Assembly (NCBI GenBank): GCA_964543385.1
Contig: CAZIYE010000001.1
Coordinates: forward strand, 356,933-420,932
Direction: 5' to 3'
Length of the DNA: 64,000 nt
Source: an uncultured Candidatus Saccharibacteria bacterium
Lineage (GTDB): Bacteria > Patescibacteriota > UBA1384 > XYA2-FULL-43-10 > 1-14-0-10-43-13
The position numbers were made by a program, and so were the translations under genes. The notes below the pieces were generated by a model. It saw only the letters and a program-made list of their open reading frames with translations. It was not told the DNA's origin and searched no databases. Shown here piece by piece: positions 6,338 through 52,371 of the stretch (positions are counted from its first letter, which is position 1; the number at the start of each line of letters is the position of its first letter).

Positions 6338-7390
6338 TTATCTCTTAAATTCTTTTGGCAATAACACATTTGAAAGTAAATCAAGATCTTCCAATACCAT
6401 TCCGGCTCCCCTTACAACTGCTGTTAACGGATCATCAGCGATATGCACTTGTGTTTGAGTTTCGATAGCAATACGACGGTCAAGTCCTCGAAGTAATGCT
6501 CCACCACCTGATAAAACTATACCCCTGTCCATAATATCAGCAAGCAATTCTGGCGGAGTCTCTTCCATTGTGACCCTTATACTCTCCAAAATCTGATTAA
6601 GAGATTTTCTGGTCGCTTCACGAATTTGAGTATCATTGACTATAATTTCCTTTGGCAATCCAGAAACAAGATCCCTGCCTCTCATGGGGGCTTCGAGTTT
6701 CTCTTTCATTTCGATAGCAGACCCTACTTTAATTTTAATCTCCTCTGCTGTTCTTTCACCTAAAAGGAGGTTGAATTTGTCTCTGGCATATTGGATTATA
6801 TCTTCATTTAGCTCATCGCCAGCAATGCGTAGCGATCTAGAAGCCACTACTCCCCCAAGAGATATAACAGCTACCTCTGTAGTACCACCACCAATATCAA
6901 CAATCATACTGCCAGAAGCGTCCTGTATGGGCAATCTTGCACCAATTGCCGCGGCAATTGGCTCCTCTATCAAAAAAACCTCACGCGCACCGGCATTGAT
7001 TGCTCCCTCTTCGACAGCTCTTCTCTCTACTTCCGTCACGCTATGCGGAATTCCGATCACTACTCTGGGCCTAGGAATTAATGTAAATCTTTCTCTATGT
7101 ATTCTATCAAAGAAATATTTAAGCATCTGTTCAGTAATCTCAAAGTCCGAAATTACACCGTCAACAAGCGGTCTTACGGCTACTATATGCGCAGGAGTTC
7201 TACCTACCATTCTTTTAGCCTCTTCACCAACAGCCAAAATCTCCTTTGTCCGTTTATTTATCGCCACGACAGAAGGCTCCTTAATCACAATACCCTGGCC
7301 CTTAAGGTATACGAGCGTATTTGCAGTTCCAAGATCGATACCAATATCTTGCGAAAAACGATTTAAAATTTTACTGAAAGGATTTATCAC
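6338..7390 (-). CDS. mreB: actin-like rod shape protein MreB
   Basis: 350 aa; DIGTANT…, …DIGGGTTEVAV… actin-fold ATPase motifs. Confidence 0.9.
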   Translation of the reverse strand: MINPFSKILNRFSQDIGIDLGTANTLVYLKGQGIVIKEPSVVAINKRTKEILAVGEEAKRMVGRTPAHIVAVRPLVDGVISDFEITEQMLKYFFDRIHRERFTLIPRPRVVIGIPHSVTEVERRAVEEGAINAGAREVFLIEEPIAAAIGARLPIQDASGSMIVDIGGGTTEVAVISLGGVVASRSLRIAGDELNEDIIQYARDKFNLLLGERTAEEIKIKVGSAIEMKEKLEAPMRGRDLVSGLPKEIIVNDTQIREATRKSLNQILESIRVTMEETPPELLADIMDRGIVLSGGGALLRGLDRRIAIETQTQVHIADDPLTAVVRGAGMVLEDLDLLSNVLLPKEFKR

Positions 7391-7540
7391 AATAAGAGAT
7401 CCAAATTATATACTAACAAAAAACACCGATATTTTGGAAATGAACTACTGTTAGCTTCATCTCCAAATGTTCAGATTCATTTTTAGTCTAATTCAAATAA
7501 GCCTTATGGTCAAGCAGAGAACAACACCTCTTTTCAAAAA

Positions 7541-22964: not shown

Positions 22965-23050
22965 TGGTACCCGAGGCCGGACTCGAACCGGCACGCTGTT
23001 TAGAGCAAAGGATTTTAAGTCCTTCGTGTCTACCATTCCACCACTCGGGC
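22965..23050 (-). tRNA. tRNA-Leu(TAA)
   Basis: Cloverleaf GCCCGAG…ACTTAAAAT anticodon loop…long variable arm…GGTTCGAGTCC…CTCGGGTACCA; CCA encoded. Confidence 0.85.
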
Positions 23051-23057
23051 ATATCAG

Positions 23058-24017
23058 TTACACAACTCGCCAACCGTTTCCATCAATCTCTAGCTTCCCT
23101 TCGATTGTAAAGCCAGAGGCTTTTTTATGACCACCACCACCTAGCAATTTTGCTAATTGAGCAAGATCAATATTATCACAATCAGTGCGTAAACTGCCTT
23201 TGATTTTAGCATCTTTGGTCTCATAAAGCAACAAAGCGGCCTTCGATTCTGGTGCAGAGTTTAGAAGGTTTACAAGCCCAGATACGTCATCATCGTTAGC
23301 ACCACAATCCTGTAAATCACTTTGGGTAACTACTGAAATTGATATACCTAAATCCTTGTTTAATATCATCCTATTTAAAGCAATCCCCCAAAGTTTAAAA
23401 ACGGAAACAGGTTTATGGATAGAGATATTTTCCGAAATTTTTTGTAGTTTGGCTCCTCTTTTGAGTAAGTCAGCCGCAATACCTAAGACAGTTTCCGTTG
23501 TATTTGAATGACGAAAACCACCAGTATCGTAAAAAATCCCTGTCAAAAGAGCCGTGGCCGCTGATGGAGTAATCTCGTGGTTTAGGCCAACTAGAATATT
23601 GTAGATTAACTCTGATGTGGAAGAGACATCCTCATTGGAATAATTTACATCTGCGATCTTCCAAAGATCATTTTTGGGATGATGGTCGATATTTATTACC
23701 GGGACGCCATTTCCCATAGCTAATGTTATCTCCTCGACAAAACCTGTCCTTCGGAAATCACCATTGTCCAGGAGAATAATCGCCTCAAATTCTTTTCGAG
23801 GAAAAGTATTTTCTATAAGAAGAGAATCGTTTAAATAATGTAGAATCGCTGGGGCTGCATCCCTGCAGACGAGATGAACATCCTTCTTTTTCGTCTTTAG
23901 TACCTCAGCAAGACTAAGCATAGAACCGATAGCATCGCCGTCTGGCTCAATATGGCAAACCAAAAGAAAGCTTGCTTTGTCCTCCAACAGTTTCTTTAGT
24001 TTATTGAAAGAGCCCAT
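23058..24017 (-). CDS. nrnA: DHH-family oligoribonuclease/pAp phosphatase
   Basis: …HIEPDGDAIGS…, …INIDHHPKND… DHH motifs and DHHA1-like C-terminus. Confidence 0.8.
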   Translation of the reverse strand: MGSFNKLKKLLEDKASFLLVCHIEPDGDAIGSMLSLAEVLKTKKKDVHLVCRDAAPAILHYLNDSLLIENTFPRKEFEAIILLDNGDFRRTGFVEEITLAMGNGVPVINIDHHPKNDLWKIADVNYSNEDVSSTSELIYNILVGLNHEITPSAATALLTGIFYDTGGFRHSNTTETVLGIAADLLKRGAKLQKISENISIHKPVSVFKLWGIALNRMILNKDLGISISVVTQSDLQDCGANDDDVSGLVNLLNSAPESKAALLLYETKDAKIKGSLRTDCDNIDLAQLAKLLGGGGHKKASGFTIEGKLEIDGNGWRVV

Positions 24018-24078
24018 TTAAGAAAATCCCGGGTTTAGAAGATGAAAAAACCGAATAATTATATGTCTTTTCTGGTCA

Positions 24079-24582
24079 CTATTGGTTTTTCAGAATGATG
24101 ATCTGTCTTTCTTCTTCTGGTAGATCTGATTTCCTAATCTTTAAAATATCAATCTCATTATCTGTTATTCCCTCGCTCTTCTTAAACTCAGCGATATCAC
24201 TATAAAGCATCGGGATAACGACTCGAGGATCTATTTTTGAAACCAATTTTAGAGCTACCTTCAAGTCGATAGTGTCCATTTCTCCAAGTGGAAGAAATAG
24301 AATATCAACATCCCCTATCTGTTTGATTTCTTCTTCTGAAAGTTCATGTTTAATGTGACCAAGATGACACAAATTCACCTCCTCAACTCTAGCCACATAG
24401 ATGGTATTATCTTGATCAGCAATACCGTTTAAGATAACACCACCCTTCTCATATTCTCCAGGTCCTGGAAAAGTGAAATTATTTATGGTGACTTTATCAG
24501 CCAATATGACATCGAGATCTTTTGATTTTATCTCAAAATAATCTTTGCCCTTATATTTGATCTGCATATTTCCTCCGCACAA
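24079..24582 (-). CDS. hypothetical protein (possible truncated metal-dependent hydrolase fold)
   Basis: 167 aa; …CHLGHIKHELSEEE…DILFLPLGE…; no confident family assignment. Confidence 0.35.
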   Translation of the reverse strand: MCGGNMQIKYKGKDYFEIKSKDLDVILADKVTINNFTFPGPGEYEKGGVILNGIADQDNTIYVARVEEVNLCHLGHIKHELSEEEIKQIGDVDILFLPLGEMDTIDLKVALKLVSKIDPRVVIPMLYSDIAEFKKSEGITDNEIDILKIRKSDLPEEERQIIILKNQ

Positions 24583-24653
24583 TTTAATTTCTTTAGCCAG
24601 CTTGTTTTGCCCTGTACGCCCTTAGTTCAATGGAACAAAACAATATAGAATAA

Positions 24654-25919
24654 TTATTCTGTGATCTCTTCAACCTTTTTTGTCTTTTTGACTTTTTTTC
24701 CGTCTAGGCTCGCCTTAGCCGAGACTGACGGTTTCTCTACGGCAATTGCTTCGGTTTTCTCTTCAACAACTTCAGCCTCTTCTTTTGCTTTTGTCTTGGT
24801 CTTTTCAGTTTTTCCATCAACTTTCATCGATAGACCAAGTCTATGATTTTCAGCCTCTATAGAAATAATTTGGAATTTATATTTCTTTCCGAGTTCAACA
24901 ATTTGTCCTGGATCAACGATTCTGTCTGAGGACAATTCTGAGATATGGACCAAGCCATCGATATCCTCATCTAGGGATACAAAGGCGCCAAATGGTGTAA
25001 TCTTAGTTACTTCACCTTCGACAACATCGCTAACTTTGTATTTAGAAGCTGCCTTGACCCAAGGATCTGGTAAAAGTCTTTTTACTGAAAGCGAAACACG
25101 ACCATCATCAACTGAAATTATCATTGTTTCGACTTCATCACCAACTTTGAAAAGCTTGTGTAGATCATTTACTCTTGTCCATGAAATCTCAGAAATATGT
25201 GCTAAAGCTTCAATTTCTGGATCGATTGAGACAAATAGACCAAAATCTACTATGCCGGTAATCTTACCTTTGACCCTGTCGCCAACTTTGAATTTATCAA
25301 TCTTTGTCTTGACTTCCTGAGCCTTAACAGCTTTTTCAGAGAAGATGAGTTTGTTAGTATCTTTTTCACAATTTATAACTTTTACTGCAATTTCCTGACC
25401 AATAAATCTTCGTAATCTGTTTAAAATTTCATCTTTATCACCGCCAGAAACACGTGGATAGTGAGCTGGAGCTAACTGCGAAACAGGCAAGAATCCGAGG
25501 ATTCCTCCGACATCAGCAATCAAGCCGCCCTTATTTGCATCAGTAACTTTGATAGAAACAGGTTCGCCAGTTTTATAACCATTCTCCATTTCAAGCCAGA
25601 ATTTTTCTCTGTCAGCACGTTTCATCGAGAGAACGACGTTACCGTCCTCGTCCTCCATAGCAACGACTGTTGCCATGATTTGGTCACCCTTCTTTAAGCC
25701 AGTTTTCGAAGTAATTTCTTTTTCTGGAATAAAACCAAGGGACTGTCCGGCTACATCAACCCAGATTCTGTTACCACTGACGGCTAGAATTGTTGCGTCA
25801 ATCATTTCTCCTTCAGCAAAAGGCAACAGTCTATCACCTAATTCATCAATAAGCTGCTCCATGGATTCTGCTGCTGGGGCATTTTTCTTTTCTTCTACAA
25901 TCTCTTTCTCTTCTGTCAT
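24654..25919 (-). CDS. rpsA: 30S ribosomal protein S1 (short, 4 S1 domains)
   Basis: 421 aa with repeated S1/OB folds (…GDQIMATVV…, …GDRVKGKITGI…, …GDEVETMIISV…), Lys/Glu-rich C-terminal tail. Confidence 0.85.
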   Translation of the reverse strand: MTEEKEIVEEKKNAPAAESMEQLIDELGDRLLPFAEGEMIDATILAVSGNRIWVDVAGQSLGFIPEKEITSKTGLKKGDQIMATVVAMEDEDGNVVLSMKRADREKFWLEMENGYKTGEPVSIKVTDANKGGLIADVGGILGFLPVSQLAPAHYPRVSGGDKDEILNRLRRFIGQEIAVKVINCEKDTNKLIFSEKAVKAQEVKTKIDKFKVGDRVKGKITGIVDFGLFVSIDPEIEALAHISEISWTRVNDLHKLFKVGDEVETMIISVDDGRVSLSVKRLLPDPWVKAASKYKVSDVVEGEVTKITPFGAFVSLDEDIDGLVHISELSSDRIVDPGQIVELGKKYKFQIISIEAENHRLGLSMKVDGKTEKTKTKAKEEAEVVEEKTEAIAVEKPSVSAKASLDGKKVKKTKKVEEITE

Positions 25920-26036
25920 TTTACATTTTCCTTTCTAATCCTCTGATCTCGTCTGAGATAGAGGGGGGTCATCCAGTTCTGCTGGATGTTTACCCTGTGA
26001 AATGTCGCCAATCGCCTTGGCCAATATTTCACAGGG
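25920..26036 (-). promoter_or_regulatory. structured 5' leader of rpsA (three hairpins)
   Basis: Minus strand: 11-bp stem ccctgtgaaat/atttcacaggg with 22-nt loop (25994-26036), hairpin catccag-cagaa-ctggatg (25970-25988), hairpin cctct(g)atctc-gtct-gagatagagg (25940-25964), then AAAGGA SD. Confidence 0.35.
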
Positions 26037-26060
26037 CGAACTATTGTTAATTAATAAATA

Positions 26061-26468
26061 TTATCTTTTCTTTTTTGCCTTTGATTTCGGTAAATATTTG
26101 TCAAATCTCGAGTTAGTCTCTTGCTCCTTCTGATAAACCGGTAAAAGCCTTGTTGTATTCATTGCAAGTGTAATAAGCCATGCAATAAATGTTGTTATAA
26201 CCAAAATCAGAAAAAATCTTGATGCAAGCCATGGCAATTGTTCATATCTTGCCCCCAGATGCACCATTCCCAGAAACCCAGTTAATATAGAAGGCGTTAT
26301 GTACCCCTTCCATATCTTTACATGATCTTTTCTGATGAATATCCAAAGTGTGATTCCTATCAAAATAAGCAAACAAAAGGAAATCATCAGAGGAATATAA
26401 AAATCAGATTGAACCGGTGGTACGGAGCTGAAGATAAATTCTTTTGTTAAAAACTGTGTTGTGTTCAT
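26061..26468 (-). CDS. hypothetical membrane protein (4 TM)
   Basis: 135 aa, hydrophobic; basic C-terminus (KSKAKKKR). Confidence 0.45.
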   Translation of the reverse strand: MNTTQFLTKEFIFSSVPPVQSDFYIPLMISFCLLILIGITLWIFIRKDHVKIWKGYITPSILTGFLGMVHLGARYEQLPWLASRFFLILVITTFIAWLITLAMNTTRLLPVYQKEQETNSRFDKYLPKSKAKKKR

Positions 26469-26481
26469 AATTTACTTTCTT

Positions 26482-26569
26482 TGGTGGGCAGAACAGGACT
26501 TGAACCTGCACGGGATTGCTCCCACTACCACCTCAAGGTAGCGTGTATACCAATTTCACCACCTGCCCC
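26482..26569 (-). tRNA. tRNA-Leu(GAG)
   Basis: GGGGCAGGTGGTGAAATTGG…anticodon loop TTGAGGT…long variable arm…GGTTCAAGTCC…GCCCACCA. Confidence 0.85.
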
Positions 26570-26576
26570 TATTTTA

Positions 26577-26653
26577 TGGTGCGCGCTGAGGGACTTGAAC
26601 CCCCGACATCCTCGGTGTAAACGAGGCGCTCTAGCCAACTGAGCTAAGCGCGC
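26577..26653 (-). tRNA. tRNA-Val(TAC)
   Basis: GCGCGCTTAGCTCAGTTGGCTAGAGC…loop TTTACAC…GGTTCAAGTCCC…GCGCGCACCA. Confidence 0.85.
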
Positions 26654-26779
26654 ATGATACAAAAAAACGGGCACCAACCCGAATAATACTCTTTAACAAT
26701 ATTCAAGATGGTTTAATAATTTAAGTAACTAATACAGACTATAACAAATATCTCTCAAAATGTCAAAACAGAAAAACGT

Positions 26780-26864
26780 TGGTGCCGAAGGCGGGATTTG
26801 AACCCGCAATCCGTGAGGAACACGGTTCTGAACCGTGCGCGTATGCCAATTCCGCCACTCCGGC
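26780..26864 (-). tRNA. tRNA-Leu(CAG)
   Basis: GCCGGAGTGGCGGAATTGG…loop TTCAGAA…long variable arm…GGTTCAAATCCCGCC…TTCGGCACCA. Confidence 0.85.
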
Positions 26865-26892
26865 ATTTTCCGATTCCCTTCCCCTTTTCACT

Positions 26893-28404
26893 TTATCTTT
26901 TTACCCTTTTTTCCTTTATATACCATTTCGAGATATTGTCATACCTGGAATAAGGTTGTGCACCTAAAACAGTGCCAATGCCTTTGATATTATCCTTGGC
27001 CCCAAAATTATAACTTATTGGGTCATAAAGTTGTATCAAATATTCTTTAGTAACCAGATCAAAGAATTCATCATATTTTTTATTCCTAGCCGCAACATCA
27101 GTTACCATTCTTGCATCCTCTAATAGAATATCAGAATTCTTATCAGACCAGCCTGCAAAGTTTTGGTCATTTAGCTGACTAGAATGCCAAAAAGGATACG
27201 GATCACGATCATAAGCGAAATCAAATCCATAGAGCAGTAAATCATAGTTCTTGGCTGCTAAAATATCCTGAAGCTTAACAGCACTGAAATAGAAAACTTC
27301 TAGTTGAATATTTTGGCTCACAAAATTTTTCTTTATTTCCTCTGCTTTATCGCGCTGAAGCGGAGAGTCAAGAGTTGTGAGACCAATACTGATGGCTGTA
27401 TCAAATTTTTGACCTTCAAGTATTTTCTGGCGTACAGCTTTATCTTTTAATTTATCGCTTCTTGAATTAAAAATTAAACCCAACCTACGCGACGATCTAA
27501 AATCATATTTATTTCCGATTGATGATGCCTCCCCGAAAAGACCATCTATCTTGTCATCATCTGTGAAGGCATTTTCAGCATTGCCCCTTTGGGGATAAAT
27601 CTTTATACGTAAATCTTCGATAAATACCTTGCTACCAAAATAATTATTGTTGCGTTTCAATCTTATTTCTGTAATCTTGTCAGCTTTCTTCAATACTTTA
27701 ACGAATTCAAAAGCCCCTGAACCAACTGGCTTTCTGGAAAAATCACTGCTCGATACAGCAGCTGGGAGTATGCCAAAGTTACAGTTATATATAAATGGTC
27801 CGTAAGCACTCGGTAACTCCATTAGAATAGTATACTGATCTATCACGCTGATCTGAGTATCCACCCATCTTTTATTCAATGGACTTTTCAATTCTGAGGC
27901 CTTAATAGAATCGATAGTATAAGCAACATCTTGAGCAGTGAATTGTAAATCATTAACAAATTTTACATCCTGCCTTAGATAAAAAGTATATTTTTTACCA
28001 TCAGGAGAAATCTCATATCTTTCGGCAAGTTCCGGCATGATATTGCCATCAGCAGATATTCGTATAAGACTAGAAAACATTAGGCTAGAAAGACTTTTCT
28101 CAGCATCAGTTTGAGCCAATATCGGATTTAAATATTTTATTTCTCCCAATACTGCCTCAGTGTACTGCCCCCCAACCGCTGGCTCTATGACAGTCCAACC
28201 TAAATACGATCTGTAAAACTTGAACCCCAAGAGGGATATAGAAACAAAAAGGAGCGTAAACATTAAATATCGCTCCTTTTTTGCCATCAAACCATAGCTC
28301 GTACTAATATTTTTCAATATACTGAATAAAAGTGAAAAAGGTTTCTTTAGAAACCCAAAAAAATTACTATCCCTCCAAGAGGAAATTTTAAATTTATACT
28401 TCAT
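26893..28404 (-). CDS. ABC transporter substrate-binding protein, family 5 (oligopeptide/nickel type), solitary
   Basis: 503 aa; SBP_bac_5-like core (…YTFYLRQDVKFVNDLQFTAQDVAYTI…); probable start at internal MAKKERYLMFTLLFVSI (signal anchor). No permease gene adjacent. Confidence 0.7.
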   Translation of the reverse strand: MKYKFKISSWRDSNFFGFLKKPFSLLFSILKNISTSYGLMAKKERYLMFTLLFVSISLLGFKFYRSYLGWTVIEPAVGGQYTEAVLGEIKYLNPILAQTDAEKSLSSLMFSSLIRISADGNIMPELAERYEISPDGKKYTFYLRQDVKFVNDLQFTAQDVAYTIDSIKASELKSPLNKRWVDTQISVIDQYTILMELPSAYGPFIYNCNFGILPAAVSSSDFSRKPVGSGAFEFVKVLKKADKITEIRLKRNNNYFGSKVFIEDLRIKIYPQRGNAENAFTDDDKIDGLFGEASSIGNKYDFRSSRRLGLIFNSRSDKLKDKAVRQKILEGQKFDTAISIGLTTLDSPLQRDKAEEIKKNFVSQNIQLEVFYFSAVKLQDILAAKNYDLLLYGFDFAYDRDPYPFWHSSQLNDQNFAGWSDKNSDILLEDARMVTDVAARNKKYDEFFDLVTKEYLIQLYDPISYNFGAKDNIKGIGTVLGAQPYSRYDNISKWYIKEKRVKR

Positions 28405-28407
28405 AAT

Positions 28408-28626
28408 TTAAGCAAAGAATACAGAGAAGAGGGCAATGGTACAGAACAAAACAGCAACTACTATAGTAGCGTAAAATAAGAACTTTTCGACCCCGCGACG
28501 TGAACGGTAGACATTTCCCTCTCCTCCAAAAGCCATACCTAAACCCGAACCGCGTTGTTGCAGCAATACTAAAACGATTAGCAATACTGCAAAAATAATT
28601 TGTAAAATTTTAAATGTGTCAATCAT
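28408..28626 (-). CDS. secG: preprotein translocase subunit SecG
   Basis: MIDTFKILQIIFAVLLIVLVLLQQRGSGLGMAFGG… typical SecG. The track ORF extends to 28794 but that would overlap tRNA-Trp, so start is taken at 28626. Confidence 0.7.
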   Translation of the reverse strand: MIDTFKILQIIFAVLLIVLVLLQQRGSGLGMAFGGEGNVYRSRRGVEKFLFYATIVVAVLFCTIALFSVFFA

Positions 28627-28633
28627 AATTTTT

Positions 28634-28708
28634 TGGAGCGGGTAACGGGAGTCGAACCCGTATTTCGTCCTTGGCAAGGACGCATAATAGCCGCTATACG
28701 ATACCCGC
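28634..28708 (-). tRNA. tRNA-Trp(CCA)
   Basis: GCGGGTATCGTATAGCGG…loop TGCCAAG…GGTTCGACTCCCG…CCCGCTCCA. Confidence 0.85.
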
Positions 28709-28799
28709 AAATATTTAACTTTACAATGACCAATTCTAAAACAATTTCTCAAGAAATTCAATCCTTGAAGAAAAATGAACCTAACAATAACCAATTTCT

Positions 28800-28873
28800 T
28801 GGAGGCCTGGTCGGGAATCGGACCCGACTACGCGGTTTTGCAGACCGCTGCCTAACCTCTCGGCCACCAGGCC
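28800..28873 (-). tRNA. tRNA-Cys(GCA)
   Basis: GGCCTGGTGGCCGAGAGG…loop CTGCAAA…GGGTCCGATTCCCG…CAGGCCTCCA. Confidence 0.85.
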
Positions 28874-28954
28874 AAAAACTTCAAGCTTCGTTTAAGTTCA
28901 AGGCAAACCTTTAATAGAAATGGCCTGCCATGAATCCAGCTTCGCTGTGGTTCA

Positions 28955-29029
<75 letters not shown>

Positions 29030-29505: not shown

Positions 29506-31044
29506 TTAATAAGTTTTTTCCTTTGGCCTATATTGCAATGCCTCTGCAATATGGCTAGTTTTAATCGTATCCGCACCCTCTAGGTCAGCTATAGTTCGAG
29601 CTAATTTTAACAGCCTGTGATAAACTCTGGCCGATAATTTCATCGATTCAACTGCTTGAGCGATTAATTTTTTAGCATCTTCCTCGAGTCGACAAAATCC
29701 TTTTATTTCCTTTGAGCTCATCTCTGAATTTGATTTCATTTTAAGACAGCTGAATCTAGCAATCTGTCTTTTTCTAGCTTCTTCGACTCTTGCTTTTACT
29801 TTGTCCGATTCCTCAGCAAAACAATCCTCCGACAGCTTCTCATATTTAACTCTAGGAACTTCAATATGAATATCTATTCTGTCTAGTATGGGCCCTGATA
29901 TTTTTTTCTGATAACGGATAATTTGAGTGGGCGTGCAAATACACCGTTTTTCTGGATCGGACATATAGCCACAGGGACAAGGATTCTGAGCAGCTACCAA
30001 AAGAAACTCAGCTGGAAAAGTAACACTGCCGGTCGCCCTAGATACCGTGACAATACCATCTTCCAAAGGCTGGCGAAGTGCTTCCAGAACATCCCTTTGA
30101 AACTCCGGAAATTCATCTAGAAACAGTATACCTCGATGGGAGAGTGATATCTCGCCAGGCCTAGGCCAAGACCCTCCTCCTACTATTGCAACACTCGAAG
30201 TTGTATGATGCGGAGAACGAAAAGGTCTGACCAGCGACGGCGCTTTACCGCGATTTAAAAGGCCAGCAACCGAGTATATCTTCATAACATCAAGAATTTC
30301 TTCTTCATCCATTGATGGTAAAATTGAAGGCATACTTCTAGCCAGGAGAGTCTTGCCCGACCCTGGGGGACCTGAAAGCAGAATATTGTGACCTCCAGCT
30401 GCCGCAATTTCTAACGCTCTTTTTGCCTGTTCTTGTCCGGCGATATATTTAAAATCAAATTCGCTGTTTCTCCCCCCTTGCACTTTCCCCTCTCTACTTT
30501 CTGCCTTATAAGCCATAATAATCTCTTCGCCCCTCAAATGCCTAACCAACTGTTTAAGGGATTTAACTGGTATTATCTCTATCCCTCTTACCAGCGCCGC
30601 CTCAGCTACATTCACTTCAGGCAAGAAAATACGTTTTAGACCCTTTTCGGCTGCAAACATCGCTACCGGCAACACCCCATTTACGTGACGAAGCTTTCCA
30701 TCTAGAGAAAGTTCCCCCAAAAATACTGATTCTTTATACTCGGTGATCATTTCTATCTGTTCATCTGCCAATAAAATTCCTACTGCCATCGGCAAATCAA
30801 ATGAAGGTCCCTCTTTTTTGACATCAGCTGGGGCCAAATTTATAGTCAGACGATGTTGAGGAAAAAATATCCCCGAATTCTTAATAGCAGCTCTGGTTCT
30901 CTCCTTGCTTTCATCAATTGATTTATCGGGCAATCCGACTATGGTAAAAGATGGCAACCCTGCCCCTATATCTACTTCTACCTCAACCAAATAAGAGTCC
31001 AGCCCCACAGTGGCAGCACTAAAAATTTTGGCGATTTTGTCCAA
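29506..31044 (-). CDS. yifB: Mg-chelatase-like AAA+ ATPase YifB/ComM
   Basis: 512 aa; Walker A ILLSGPPGSGKTLLA; Lon-like N-domain; C-terminal ChlI-type region. Confidence 0.85.
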   Translation of the reverse strand: MDKIAKIFSAATVGLDSYLVEVEVDIGAGLPSFTIVGLPDKSIDESKERTRAAIKNSGIFFPQHRLTINLAPADVKKEGPSFDLPMAVGILLADEQIEMITEYKESVFLGELSLDGKLRHVNGVLPVAMFAAEKGLKRIFLPEVNVAEAALVRGIEIIPVKSLKQLVRHLRGEEIIMAYKAESREGKVQGGRNSEFDFKYIAGQEQAKRALEIAAAGGHNILLSGPPGSGKTLLARSMPSILPSMDEEEILDVMKIYSVAGLLNRGKAPSLVRPFRSPHHTTSSVAIVGGGSWPRPGEISLSHRGILFLDEFPEFQRDVLEALRQPLEDGIVTVSRATGSVTFPAEFLLVAAQNPCPCGYMSDPEKRCICTPTQIIRYQKKISGPILDRIDIHIEVPRVKYEKLSEDCFAEESDKVKARVEEARKRQIARFSCLKMKSNSEMSSKEIKGFCRLEEDAKKLIAQAVESMKLSARVYHRLLKLARTIADLEGADTIKTSHIAEALQYRPKEKTY

Positions 31045-31062
31045 GAAACCCCCTCCGCTTAT

Positions 31063-31467
31063 TTAGACTTCTTTTATCCTATCCCAATCGGCATAGAACT
31101 TTTTGATCTCCAGATCAGGAAAATGATTCTCAACTATCTTTGCTGCCTGAATCAATTTATCAATATGAAATTCTTTCTCATCGTTATTGTGAAATCGCTC
31201 ACTACCACCATAAGCACCACAATCAACATGGTCGATAAGCCACACTTCTTTGATTCCATGAAGCCTGACCGAAGTTTCGACTACCTTGAAAAATGAATCC
31301 CGATCCTCCTCATTGGCGAGAATCGCTTTGCTTGATCCTACACCAGTTCTAAAATCGAATACTCCACCGGTTTGCCTAGTCAACCAGTCAACTGTTTTTT
31401 TGATAAATCTACCATCAATACACGCACAGGCCAGGACATCCCACTTCTCGATTCTTTGTATATGCAT
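31063..31467 (-). CDS. minimal beta-carbonic-anhydrase-like protein
   Basis: 134 aa; CxDxR (ACIDGR) and HxxCG (DHVDCGA) motifs with the ~65-aa spacing seen in beta-CAs, but shorter than typical enzymes. Confidence 0.45.
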   Translation of the reverse strand: MHIQRIEKWDVLACACIDGRFIKKTVDWLTRQTGGVFDFRTGVGSSKAILANEEDRDSFFKVVETSVRLHGIKEVWLIDHVDCGAYGGSERFHNNDEKEFHIDKLIQAAKIVENHFPDLEIKKFYADWDRIKEV

Positions 31468-31482
31468 AGTTTTTTAGAATAA

Positions 31483-31498
31483 ATTATCAATTGATAAT
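31483..31498. repeat. 16-bp perfect palindrome ATTATCAATTGATAAT
   Basis: Read directly from sequence; lies 16 nt upstream of the start codon of 31063..31467 and ~70 nt from the edge of the GC-rich segment. Confidence 0.6.
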
Positions 31499-31570
31499 AA
31501 TTCTACCACAAAGCCCATTTTGTTCAACAATAATATAGACTAAGCCAACATTTTTAGTAAACCAGAAAAA

Positions 31571-32077
31571 TTAATATTTGATTAGATTTCTCTGGTTTCC
31601 TGCCGAACACATCCTGTGTCGGCCGGAGATTTTCCCCAGACTCGTTGTCCGAAAGTCTGGTTTGGTTTTCTTGTCCATTGTCGTCGGATAGACCGTATAT
31701 ATCCAATAATAGGTTTTTCCGACTTTTCGAATTTCACTACCAGTAACTCGGCAGGCATTCGCTCCCCAGTAGTCGACAAGGAGTTGCGAATACTCCACGA
31801 TCAACTGAGCTTGAGTATGATCATCGTTATCAGGGATAAGGACATCCGCTCCATACTGGAGAGCGATAATCTTAGCCTTAGGCAAACGAATGATGCCACC
31901 GGCCAAGCGACTGACCGCCTCCTCACGAGACATAACTGCCAGGCTGACCTGACGGTCTGCTTTCTTGTGGAGGGAAACACGATGCCAGATAAACAAGCTG
32001 GCAAGCAATGTGAACCACACAAGACAGAGGATGAGAGACCATTTGAAACTCAATTTCACGGTGAGTACCCCTTTCAA
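31571..32077 (-). CDS. hypothetical membrane-anchored protein (GC-rich cassette)
   Basis: 168 aa; TTG (or GTG 7 codons in) start with GAGGAA/AAGGGG SD; N-terminal TM LILCLVWFTLLASLFIW; no recognised domain; G+C clearly above flanking DNA. Confidence 0.4.
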   Translation of the reverse strand: MKGVLTVKLSFKWSLILCLVWFTLLASLFIWHRVSLHKKADRQVSLAVMSREEAVSRLAGGIIRLPKAKIIALQYGADVLIPDNDDHTQAQLIVEYSQLLVDYWGANACRVTGSEIRKVGKTYYWIYTVYPTTMDKKTKPDFRTTSLGKISGRHRMCSAGNQRNLIKY

Positions 32078-32168
32078 AGTGCATTCCTCGGAGGAACGTT
32101 ATTGTTTTTTACCAGAAAAATGACTGATTTTCAATCAGATCAACACAAAGTAAGACAAAAATAGAAAT

Positions 32169-32197
32169 TTGAAATTAAACAAAATATTATTTATAAT
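32169..32197 (+). promoter_or_regulatory. near-consensus sigma70 promoter (TTGAAA-17-TATAAT)
   Basis: Exact -35/-10 hexamers with 17-nt spacing; drives the structured RNA at 32204-32357. Confidence 0.5.
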
Positions 32198-32203
32198 CTT
32201 TAG

Positions 32204-32357
32204 CAAGCTGAGCAGTCCGCCAATAAACCATGACTAGAAAAGCACTCCTATATCTTGCGAAAGCAAGTGCGGACTGAGGTTCATTTAAATGTGGTTTTTA
32301 AGCCGATGCTTGCGTACCGTGCGGTATCCTCTTCTGGATTGCCGCACCGTTTTTGTT
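32204..32357 (+). ncRNA. candidate ~150-nt structured small RNA / leader element ending in an intrinsic terminator
   Basis: 8-bp helix cagtccgc(32213-20)/gcggactg(32269-76); GNRA hairpin cttgc-GAAA-gcaag (32254-67); terminator gtgcgg(t)atcc-tcttct-ggat(tg)ccgcac + TTTTTGTT (32319-32357). No ORF with an SD. Confidence 0.4.
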
Positions 32358-32407
32358 ATATGGCAAAAATGTGAATCCGCTATTACCATATTTATATTTT
32401 ACCGTCA

Positions 32408-32713
32408 ATGATATATATACTTGACGCTCCAATTTGTGTAATGTTAATTTATTGTCAAGGTAATAAAGCCCTACTTATTTTTATGAAAAAAACCTTACTC
32501 TTTTCCTTTTCGCTGATTGGTCAGATCGGCTTCTCAGTAGCAATCCCCTTACTAGTATTGGGACTTTTGGGTCGCTATCTGGATAAGATAGCTAGCACAT
32601 CTCCCTATCTCTTTCTGCTAGGGCTAGCCTTGGCTACTGTATTTATTTATTTTTATTTAAGACAGCTAGTCAAAAAATCGATAAAAGAGTTCGATAAATT
32701 AAACAAAGAGTAG
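32408..32713 (+). CDS. ATP synthase protein I/AtpZ-like small membrane protein
   Basis: 2-TM hydrophobic protein immediately upstream of atpB; probable start ATG at 32483 (MKKTLLFSF…). Confidence 0.5.
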   Translation: MIYILDAPICVMLIYCQGNKALLIFMKKTLLFSFSLIGQIGFSVAIPLLVLGLLGRYLDKIASTSPYLFLLGLALATVFIYFYLRQLVKKSIKEFDKLNKE

Positions 32714-33466
32714 ATGGAAATTTCCCTTGCCGCAGAAAAAATAGCTCACATAGGAGAAATGCCAATCACCAATTCAATGGTGACTAGTTGGATTGGCTCA
32801 ATTATTTTAATTGTTTTCGCGCTCGTAGCTACCAGAAAGATGAAAATGGTTCCAACTGGTGTACAAAATGTTTTCGAGTTTGCTATTGAATCACTCTACA
32901 ATATGGCAAACAGCGTTATCGATAATGAAAAAGCCACCAGAAAATACTTTCCCCTGGTAGCAACAATATTTCTTTTTATCATTTGTAATAATTGGCTTGG
33001 CCTGCTTCCTGGCGTCGGCACTATAGGAATACATGAAGTGATACATGGCAAAGAAGTCCTAGTGCCGCTTTTCCGCTCAGGCAACGCTGATCTAAATATG
33101 ACGCTGGCTTTGGCTATCATTACCGTACTGGCTATTCAAATTTTCGGCATTGCAGCTATTGGTGTATTCAAATACGGCAAAAAATTCATTAATTTCTCAA
33201 ATCCAATTAACTTTGTTGTCGGTATTCTAGAATTAATTGGTGAAGTTTCTAGAATTATCTCTTTCTCCTTTCGTCTTTTCGGCAACGTATTCGCTGGTGA
33301 GGTTTTATTAACTGTTATCGCATTCATCGTACCTTTTATTGCCCCACTACCTTTTTACGGCCTAGAGATTTTTGTCGGCTTCATCCAGGCTCTTGTTTTC
33401 ACAATGCTTACTTTAGTATTCATCAAATCAGCTATTACTGATCATGAAGCAGAACATGCACATTAG
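32714..33466 (+). CDS. atpB: F0 ATP synthase subunit a
   Basis: 250 aa, 5-6 TM, conserved …SFSFRLFGNVFAGE… (essential Arg region). Confidence 0.85.
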   Translation: MEISLAAEKIAHIGEMPITNSMVTSWIGSIILIVFALVATRKMKMVPTGVQNVFEFAIESLYNMANSVIDNEKATRKYFPLVATIFLFIICNNWLGLLPGVGTIGIHEVIHGKEVLVPLFRSGNADLNMTLALAIITVLAIQIFGIAAIGVFKYGKKFINFSNPINFVVGILELIGEVSRIISFSFRLFGNVFAGEVLLTVIAFIVPFIAPLPFYGLEIFVGFIQALVFTMLTLVFIKSAITDHEAEHAH

Positions 33467-33481
33467 AAATTAATAATATAA

Positions 33482-33733
<252 letters not shown>

Positions 33734-33813
33734 TAGAACGTAGATTGGTAGAATGTAGACTGGTTTTAGCCTTTCTACCTTCTACTTTCCACTTTCTACA
33801 TTAAGGAGAAACA

Positions 33814-34296
33814 ATGGAATCACTTGGAATAGATTTAAAACTTTTAATCGCACAGGCTATAAACTTTATTATCGTCATGCTTTTACTTTGGAAATTTGCT
33901 TACACACCTATTCTAAAAATGTTAAATGATCGCAAAGACAAGATTGCCAAAGGATTGGATGATGCTTCTGCCGCAGCTAAGAGTCTTCAGAAGGCAAAAG
34001 GCGAAAGTGATAAGATCCAAGAGAAAGCTTTCTCTGATGCAAATGAAATAATAAAAAACGCCAAAGAGGCAGCAAATGCCGAGGCCCTGCTTATATTGGA
34101 CAAAGCGAATAGCCAGGCAGATAGAATTATAAAATCAGCAAAAGAAGAAGCTTCTTCACTGAAAGACAAGACAATGGCTAGCGCCAAGAAGGAAATTTCC
34201 GACGTTGTTATCATGGCTTTAGACAAAATTGTAAATGATGAATTAACAAAAGAGCAAAAGGTAAAATTAACCAGCAAAGCAATTGCCGAATTATAA
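33814..34296 (+). CDS. atpF: F0 ATP synthase subunit b
   Basis: 160 aa; N-terminal TM then long Ala/Lys/Glu-rich helix. Confidence 0.75.
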   Translation: MESLGIDLKLLIAQAINFIIVMLLLWKFAYTPILKMLNDRKDKIAKGLDDASAAAKSLQKAKGESDKIQEKAFSDANEIIKNAKEAANAEALLILDKANSQADRIIKSAKEEASSLKDKTMASAKKEISDVVIMALDKIVNDELTKEQKVKLTSKAIAEL

Positions 34297-34349: not shown

Positions 34350-34745
34350 ATGAAGATAAAGCCTCAACAATATGCTCAAATGCTCATTGAGAGCGTCACT
34401 GAAAAGTCCGATCTAAAAAAGATTGCTGCTTCCCTGTGGCATTCCCTCCAGAAAAACAAGCAATACCGAGACCTACCAAAAATATTGGAGTTAATCGATG
34501 AGGAATTCGCTAAGAAAAATAAGCTTACTCTAGCAAAAGTTTATTCTGAGGATAGATTGAGTGAAACCGAAATCGAAAATATCCGAAAAAAACTAGAGTT
34601 AGAAAATTCCAATATTCAATATTCAATATTCAATATTCAAAAAAAGAATCTGGTTGGCGGGATCACAGTCAAAATTGAAGATAAAATCATAGACTTGAGT
34701 GTTACAGATAGAATTAACAAATTAAAACAACAATTGAACAACTAA
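34350..34745 (+). CDS. atpH: F1 ATP synthase subunit delta (OSCP), short form
   Basis: 131 aa, position between atpF and atpA; C-terminal …IIDLSVTDRINKLKQQL… OSCP-like. Confidence 0.6.
   Translation: MKIKPQQYAQMLIESVTEKSDLKKIAASLWHSLQKNKQYRDLPKILELIDEEFAKKNKLTLAKVYSEDRLSETEIENIRKKLELENSNIQYSIFNIQKKNLVGGITVKIEDKIIDLSVTDRINKLKQQLNN
34611..34638 (+). repeat. (AATATTC)x4 perfect tandem heptamer inside atpH
   Basis: Read directly: aatattcaatattcaatattcaatattc; encodes …NIQYSIFNIQ…. Confidence 0.9.
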
Positions 34746-52161: not shown

Positions 52162-52245
52162 TGGTGCCCGGGAGAGGACTCGAACCTCCACGGCTTGCGC
52201 CACCAGTTCCTAAGACTGGCGTGTATACCATTTCACCACCCGGGC
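52162..52245 (-). tRNA. tRNA-Leu(TAG)
   Basis: GCCCGGGTGGTGAAATGG…loop CTTAGGA…long variable arm…GGTTCGAGTCCTC…CCGGGCACCA. Confidence 0.85.
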
Positions 52246-52371
52246 AATGACAGGATTATATTATAAATTCCCTGTTTTTTCAAGACGAAACCACTCGCCT
52301 ATCTTAACCATTGCCTAAATAATCTATTTTCGGTATCATGATGCAGATCATTAATAAAACAAAAAACAACT

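Follow-up and report, generated by a model that had tools for sequence, protein, structure and literature searches.

A putative stand-alone small RNA gene beside the ATP synthase operon in a sub-group of Candidatus Berkelbacteria

The window, by which we mean the whole 64-kb stretch of DNA that was analysed, carries an ATP synthase (atp) operon. Among named sequences, those that match its AtpB protein best come from Candidatus Berkelbacteria, a lineage of the CPR (Patescibacteria). Directly upstream of this operon, and in the same orientation, lies an intergenic element with a predicted promoter (32169-32197), a structured body (32203-32313), and an intrinsic terminator (32316-32358), all on the plus strand. 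The T-run of the terminator ends about 125 nt before the ATG of atpI at 32483. G+C content is 0.36-0.49 in the element compared to 0.22-0.31 in both flanks, in keeping with an earlier note on this DNA that described the interval as richer in G+C than its surroundings. On its other side the element is flanked by a divergent 168-aa ORF (31571-32077, minus strand), which has a hydrophobic N-terminal segment and no Pfam match. Among the close relatives read, this ORF was found in the window lineage only; in two related lineages (L164 and L176), a Pro_CA_2 gene directly flanks the element. The region near the atp operon is also dense in tRNA genes. Rfam identifies seven of them on the minus strand within about 6 kb (22968-29029), with one at 22968, three at 26485-26864, and the others at 28637-29029.

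Two of the atp genes deserve comment in their own right. The atpI ORF was listed as 32408-32713 (101 aa), and it probably encodes 76 aa from the ATG at 32483, since relatives share the start ATGAARAA. No Shine-Dalgarno (SD) sequence precedes this start, and in several relatives a small hairpin and U-run (AAGGCAcaaaaGCCTTATATTTTT) are located just before the ATG. The ATP synthase delta subunit (OSCP; 34350-34745) is short, with 131 aa in the window and 128-141 aa in relatives.

The predicted promoter of the element is of the sigma-70 type, with a -35 hexamer TTGAAA (32169-32174), a 17-nt spacer, and a -10 hexamer TATAAT (32192-32197). The near-consensus promoter proposed in the earlier note was thus found, with 11 of 12 consensus positions matched, and it is the top promoter-like site within 31000-34000. 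The whole window contains eight sites with at least 11 of 12 matches, compared to 3.0 +/- 1.8 after local shuffling of the sequence. Among the eight, a site with identical hexamers and spacing (TTGAAA-17-TATAAT; 52255-52283, minus strand) is located directly upstream of a tRNA gene (52165-52245). A further 11/12 site, with its first hexamer at 26766 on the minus strand, is inside the tRNA cluster at 26485-26864.

The body of the predicted RNA (32203-32313) is a 111-nt unbranched rod consisting of helices P1 and P2, an apical hairpin P3, and large internal loops. The 5' strand of P1, GCAAGC (32203-32208), starts at the predicted transcription start and pairs with GCTTGC (32308-32313). P2 is a conserved long-range helix between AAACCATG (32225-32232) and TGTGGTTT (32290-32297), and its 3' side includes most of a conserved ATGTGG at 32289-32294. 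P3 is the GAAA-capped hairpin CTTGC-GAAA-GCAAG (32254-32267), which had already been recognized by eye. The most conserved block of the element, CAAGTGCGGAC (32264-32274), is identical in the window, L164, and a third related lineage, L169, and reads CAGTGCCGGGC in L176. Beyond the rod, the terminator consists of a stem (32316-32350; 11 core pairs and 2 outer pairs, ensemble pair probability 0.98-1.0) followed by TTTTTGTT. This confirms the strong intrinsic terminator that had been placed about 150 nt downstream of the promoter, with pair probability close to 1; a simple terminator scan missed it because the stem is bulged. The motif GTGCGG occurs twice in the element, at 32267 and 32319, as had been observed previously. 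The folding energy of the window copy is only modestly below chance (z = -2.4 when the whole element is folded, -1.4 when the rod is folded by itself), so the case that the element exceeds chance comes from comparative evidence and not from thermodynamics.

Coding potential and known RNA families were considered as explanations for the interval. The only SD-like candidate ORF starts at ATG 32289 (40 codons), with GAGG located 9 nt upstream. The earlier statement that no SD-preceded ORF is present needs this qualification; the ORF is not conserved. A small conserved ORF or toxin peptide was rejected; when the sequences were read by eye, the candidate was frameshifted in L164 and reduced to ATG-TGA in L176. 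At the gathering score, Rfam 15 found only tRNAs in the whole window. At E<=10, the copies from the window, L169, and L176 matched no family, giving only chance-level scores of 8-17 bits to unrelated families; this null result covers SRP RNA, 6S RNA, tmRNA, RNase P RNA, the DUF1646 Na+ riboswitch, and the ATPC motif. These searches support the earlier proposal of a discrete structured non-coding unit that runs from promoter to terminator and is no known housekeeping RNA. A hammerhead-like CUGA...GAAA core was also rejected, since by eye it reads CUGAGCA and not CUGANGA, and Rfam was empty. In the searchable literature, we found no small RNAs described for CPR bacteria, nor an RNA of this kind.

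Comparison with related genomes is useful for establishing whether such an element is maintained. Contigs of close AtpB homologues were fetched singly, and 12 related Berkelbacteria lineages were compared. The RNA is present at the same site and orientation, directly upstream of the atp promoter, in 4 of the 12: the window lineage (identical copies L001-L003), L164, L169/L170, and L176. AtpB identity to the window protein is 94% for L164, 84% for L169/L170, and 83% for L176. The distance from the RNA to the -35 of the atp promoter is about 45-60 nt in the four carrier lineages. The genes upstream of the RNA vary among carriers and include the 168-aa ORF, a Pro_CA_2 gene, and an AIRS_C gene.

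At the same site, the RNA is absent from 8 of the 12 lineages (L004, L165-L168, L172, L173-L175, L177, L178/L179, L180/L181, and L182). The absence is clean in L165, L172, and L178. In L177, which shares 96% AtpB identity with L169, the flanks are kept, and about 21 nt stand in place of about 190 nt. Comparison of L177 (about 2600-2670) with L169 (2440-2660) indicates that the RNA gene was deleted internally and that its -35 was degraded. As read from the two sequences, this deletion is direct evidence of recent loss of the RNA gene. The RNA is apparently confined to a sub-group of Berkelbacteria. Its gene has been lost repeatedly and is thus apparently dispensable, at least at this locus.

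Searches for additional copies gave a similarly narrow range. Scans seeded with AtpB returned, among the matches listed, mostly distant relatives (AtpB identity <=82% in genomes and <=70% in metagenomes), and none carried the RNA. A search with nhmmer using the window sequence matched only L164 and contigs identical to the window. A regular expression based on the core motif added L169/L170 and L176, with one false positive in a coding region of L049. Covariance models built from L169 and L176 (R1) and from the window and L164 (R2) found no further copies in the window, about 180 atp loci, and 29 viral loci; each model was blind to the other clade. Two candidates from these searches were rejected. 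A match of R2 at 7387-7509 in the window (E = 1.5) is AT-rich intergenic noise, and 29 matches from a pattern scan of viral contigs are about the number expected by chance on a rough estimate, with none scoring with R2. Homology between the two pairs is thus indicated by synteny, shared architecture, and the CAAGTGCGGAC and ATGTGG blocks at matching spacing, and not by the covariance models.

The four homologues share their organization as well as their position. In all of them a promoter with a -35, a 17-nt spacer, and a -10 ends 5-8 nt before P1, the rod measures 109-113 nt, and past a gap of 2-4 nt there is a separate 3' hairpin. Only L169 has a poor U-tract behind this hairpin (AUUUACC); the window, L164, and L176 have a good one. 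When each sequence was folded alone, the minimum-energy structure was a single unbranched rod over at least 90% of the length in all four. Such a fold was found in only 4-6% of dinucleotide shuffles, a test that is partly circular in that the rod ends were chosen using P1. Folding z-scores of the rod are weak in two of the four (-1.4 and -1.2).

Compensatory base changes provide evidence that a predicted helix is under selection. P2 is paired in 32 of 32 cells across the four sequences, with two-sided changes in four of its eight pairs. Its covariation score was 0.83, compared to 0.41 +/- 0.11 in shuffles (1 of 500 was as high), and when the 3' partner was slid by 1-3 columns as a control, only 25-46% of cells paired. 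The window and L164 copies are 90% identical. Their differences include a double compensatory change in P2, along with three single changes there that preserve pairing, and one double change in P3, where a G-C pair in the hairpin cttgc-GAAA-gcaag becomes A-U in this nearest homologue. Between L169 and L176, 20 of 20 pairs are retained, with three double and two single changes. In these two lineages the sequence of the closing helix P1 is unlike that of the window (CAGAGACUU/AAGUCUCUG and CAAUGGUCC/GGAUCGUUUG); one two-sided change between the two was computed, and three further ones in its inner part were counted by hand. The counterparts of P3, CCGGC-UCAC-GCCGG in L169 and CCGA-UGAAU-UCGG in L176, have one two-sided change between them. 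Pairing in P1, P2, and P3 is thus kept through compensatory substitutions in the four sequences. Because these represent four sequences in two pairs, the covariation counts are suggestive and not statistically strong.

Other parts of the fold are conserved in different ways. In L169 and L176, an inner CAC/GUG helix (P2a) is clear, formed by nested pairing of the conserved block with CCG-A-CAC or CUCG-U-CAC on the 5' strand; this helix is ambiguous in the window. The best-conserved bases, CAAGUGCGGAC (32264-32274) and AUGUG (32289-32293), are on the 3' side of the large internal loop. A MAFFT alignment of the four full rods left the 5' half out of register, and the usable alignments were those within clades and one trimmed at the P2 boundaries. 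The strand was assigned from the promoter and terminator only, as neither G-U pairs nor folding energy discriminated between strands; the reverse strand folds about equally well, and better in L169.

The long-range helix on which the conserved rod is built is not the one that had been proposed. The earlier note described an 8-bp helix cagtccgc/gcggactg, and this helix is present in the window, where CAGTCCGC (32213-32220) can pair with 32269-32276. Its conservation is another matter. In L164, three of its eight pairs are broken and are uncompensated in register, with a shifted 5-bp GAGUC/GACUC helix as the alternative there, and its 5' segment does not exist in L169 or L176. A check of covariation thus supported P1, P2, and P3 (in four sequences), and the 8-bp helix failed it. 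The 8-bp helix is incompatible with P2, and in the window ensemble the two mutually exclusive helices have probabilities of 0.67 and 0.33, respectively. The window RNA may thus adopt an alternative fold particular to its lineage, distinct from the conserved one.

The relationship of the element to the adjacent operon is central to its interpretation. The atp operon has its own predicted promoter outside the RNA (32403-32450, plus strand; TTGACG-18-TAATTT), with its -35 at 32421-32426 and a TG-extended -10 at 32445-32450. The -35 forms the right half of an inverted repeat in this promoter, CGTCAA-N12-TTGACG. The promoter region is kept in 11 lineages (L001, which is the window, L164, L165, L169, L172, L173, L176, L177, L178, L180, and L182), and seven of these 11 have no RNA. 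Across lineages the repeat has the form (C/G)GTCAA-N12/13-TTGAC(G), whether the RNA is present or absent. From its sequence, the inverted repeat looks like the operator of a regulator of ATP synthase expression. Since this predicted promoter is also conserved in relatives that lack the RNA, the atp operon appears to be independent of the promoter of the RNA.

These observations bear on the possibility that the element is a cis-regulatory leader, either a riboswitch or an attenuator. Here the rod would sense a ligand or protein and gate read-through, adding transcripts from the upstream promoter to atp. The position of the element suits such a role: it is co-oriented with atp and directly upstream of it in four lineages, despite rearranged genes further upstream, and a structured domain followed by a terminator is the layout of a transcriptional riboswitch. 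Some read-through is plausible in L169, where the U-tract of the 3' hairpin is poor. GUGCGG is found both in the rod and in the 5' strand of the terminator in the window and L164, and the earlier note had proposed from this repetition that the 3' strand of the terminator could switch between partners. This switch did not stand up to folding. Forcing the GUGCGG within the rod to pair with the 3' strand of the terminator gives -33.7 kcal/mol, 14.7 kcal/mol worse than the -48.4 kcal/mol of the unforced fold, and the alternative pairing has a probability of 0.0. By eye, L169 and L176 offer complementarity of only 4-5 bp for such a switch. The separate atp promoter, with its operator-like palindrome, lies past the terminator and is unchanged in relatives without the RNA, which also argues against the leader proposed earlier.

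Sequence turnover provides a further argument. Ligand-binding aptamers have strongly conserved cores, and the two clades of the element are barely alignable at 84% AtpB identity. Structured RNA motifs are known next to atp genes, including the Na+ riboswitch/DUF1646 motif (PMC9337991) and the cyanobacterial ATPC motif (PMC1950547). The element resembles these in having a structured RNA and then a terminator beside atp genes. It differs from them in having a separate atp promoter, no competing anti-terminator, and no strongly conserved core, and it matches neither motif, nor any other family, in Rfam. Duplexes between the RNA and atp translation starts were also considered. Those with atpI had z-scores of -1.1 to -3.1 and involved a different part of the RNA each time, and they were not counted as evidence. 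Taken at its own merits, a leader function is unlikely, and the element is probably not a switch controlling ATP synthase.

The patchy distribution of the element raises a different explanation: a palindromic piece of DNA that has no function or is decaying, such as what is left of a MITE/ERIC-like repeat, or a relic locus, with promoter-like and terminator-like flanks that are incidental or left over. ERIC and MITE repeats are similarly intergenic, similarly differ in presence and absence among close relatives, and can likewise be imperfect palindromes of about 110 bp. The rod is itself an imperfect palindrome, one that folds equally well on either strand, and its sequence turns over rapidly. 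The clean absences in L165, L172, and L178 and the internal deletion in L177 relative to L169 fit this explanation, and with absence in 8 of 12 lineages the RNA could be decaying. Repeats of this type differ from the element in several respects, however. The element is single-copy in the sequence searched, with one copy in the 64-kb window and no second copy in about 1.1 Mb of sequence from related bacteria, which covered about 180 atp loci. It has no conserved termini: there is no terminal inverted repeat beyond the 6-9 bp of P1 and no target-site duplication at the borders, and P1 varies among lineages by compensatory changes, unlike the conserved end expected of a transposase-binding site. 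Each of the four lineages keeps the promoter and the terminator at set distances from the rod, and the compensatory double substitutions in its helices indicate selection on pairing. We regard a palindromic remnant as improbable.

A housekeeping RNA that has diverged strongly could also account for an unbranched rod behind a strong promoter, either as a miniature 6S-like RNA that binds RNA polymerase or as a 4.5S/SRP-like RNA. The promoter hexamers are those of a tRNA promoter in the window, which would make the two promoters equal in strength, and Rfam detects no 6S or SRP RNA elsewhere in the window. Like 4.5S or small SRP RNA (RF00169), the element is a stand-alone, unbranched, irregular hairpin of about 110 nt, and it has a GNRA apical loop in two of four copies. 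SRP RNA is characterized by conserved symmetric and asymmetric loops in domain IV together with a GNRA tetraloop. By eye the element lacks this domain-IV motif (a GGAA loop with AGCA/AGG loops), and its apical loop is variable (GAAA, GAAA, UCAC, and UGAAU in the four copies). It is also dispensable: the gene is missing at this site in most close relatives and was deleted in place in L177, which is unexpected for SRP RNA.

The resemblance to 6S RNA is one of shape. 6S RNA forms a rod 150-200 nt long around a large, open central bubble; it binds the RNA polymerase holoenzyme and serves as the template for a short product RNA. The element shares with 6S RNA (RF00013) a strong promoter, a shape that is kept over sequence, and a large helix-flanked internal loop, which measures 9-16 nt by 16-19 nt between conserved helices and resembles the central bubble. 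At about 110 nt, however, its rod reaches about 60% of the length known for 6S RNAs, and its internal loop is predicted to be partly self-paired. Neither the 6S nor the SRP model scored at E<=10 on three homologues. We therefore consider a diverged housekeeping RNA highly unlikely.

The explanation that we favor, with somewhat better than even confidence and from comparison of sequences, is that the element is a stand-alone gene for a small RNA, restricted to certain lineages and belonging to a new, uncatalogued family. In the four homologues a predicted promoter and a 3' hairpin bracket a non-coding interval, and of the two options offered in the earlier note, an independent sRNA fits better than a leader of the atp operon. 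Generic bacterial sRNA genes similarly have their own sigma-70-type promoter, a length of about 150 nt, and a structured body with a Rho-independent terminator hairpin and U-tract, and they are intergenic, narrow in phylogenetic range, and frequently lost. The element differs from them in lacking a conserved single-stranded seed, in forming one long rod instead of separate hairpins, and in having a CPR host.

As a small RNA gene, the element would be transcribed from its own strong sigma-70-type promoter, with a start no more than a few bases from the first nucleotide of P1. The transcript would fold into an unbranched rod of about 110 nt in which P1, an internal loop, P2, a large internal loop, and P3 follow one another, and the large internal loop would carry the best-conserved bases (GUGCGGAC and AUGUG). 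Termination about 45 nt beyond the rod would yield an RNA of roughly 150 nt, and the downstream atp operon would be transcribed from its own conserved promoter. The selection on helices and a few loop bases, with no long single-stranded seed and no aptamer-like core, leads us to guess that the RNA works in trans, either bound to protein or as a regulator, and not in cis on atp. The RNA is beside atp in every carrier, and a role in cis is possible.

The practical result of this analysis is a correction: a rod based on P2 replaces the 8-bp helix described previously, and a riboswitch or atp leader is the less likely reading of the element. The importance of the RNA is limited by its narrow family and its loss in close relatives, and we regard it as a real though modest finding, a probable small RNA from a bacterial phylum that has been little explored. 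A bolder version, which we consider very unlikely, is that this is the first CPR-specific structured RNA with a dedicated cellular partner, either a miniature 6S-like RNA or RNA of an unknown ribonucleoprotein, or else a leader of a new type, which senses a ligand and supplies atp with a second, strong promoter. If either form of this version were true, it would represent a new kind of control of energy metabolism in the reduced genomes of CPR bacteria. CPR genomes are tiny, and a stable RNA at this locus would add one candidate regulatory RNA to the group; its constant place next to the ATP synthase operon hints at where its function should be sought.
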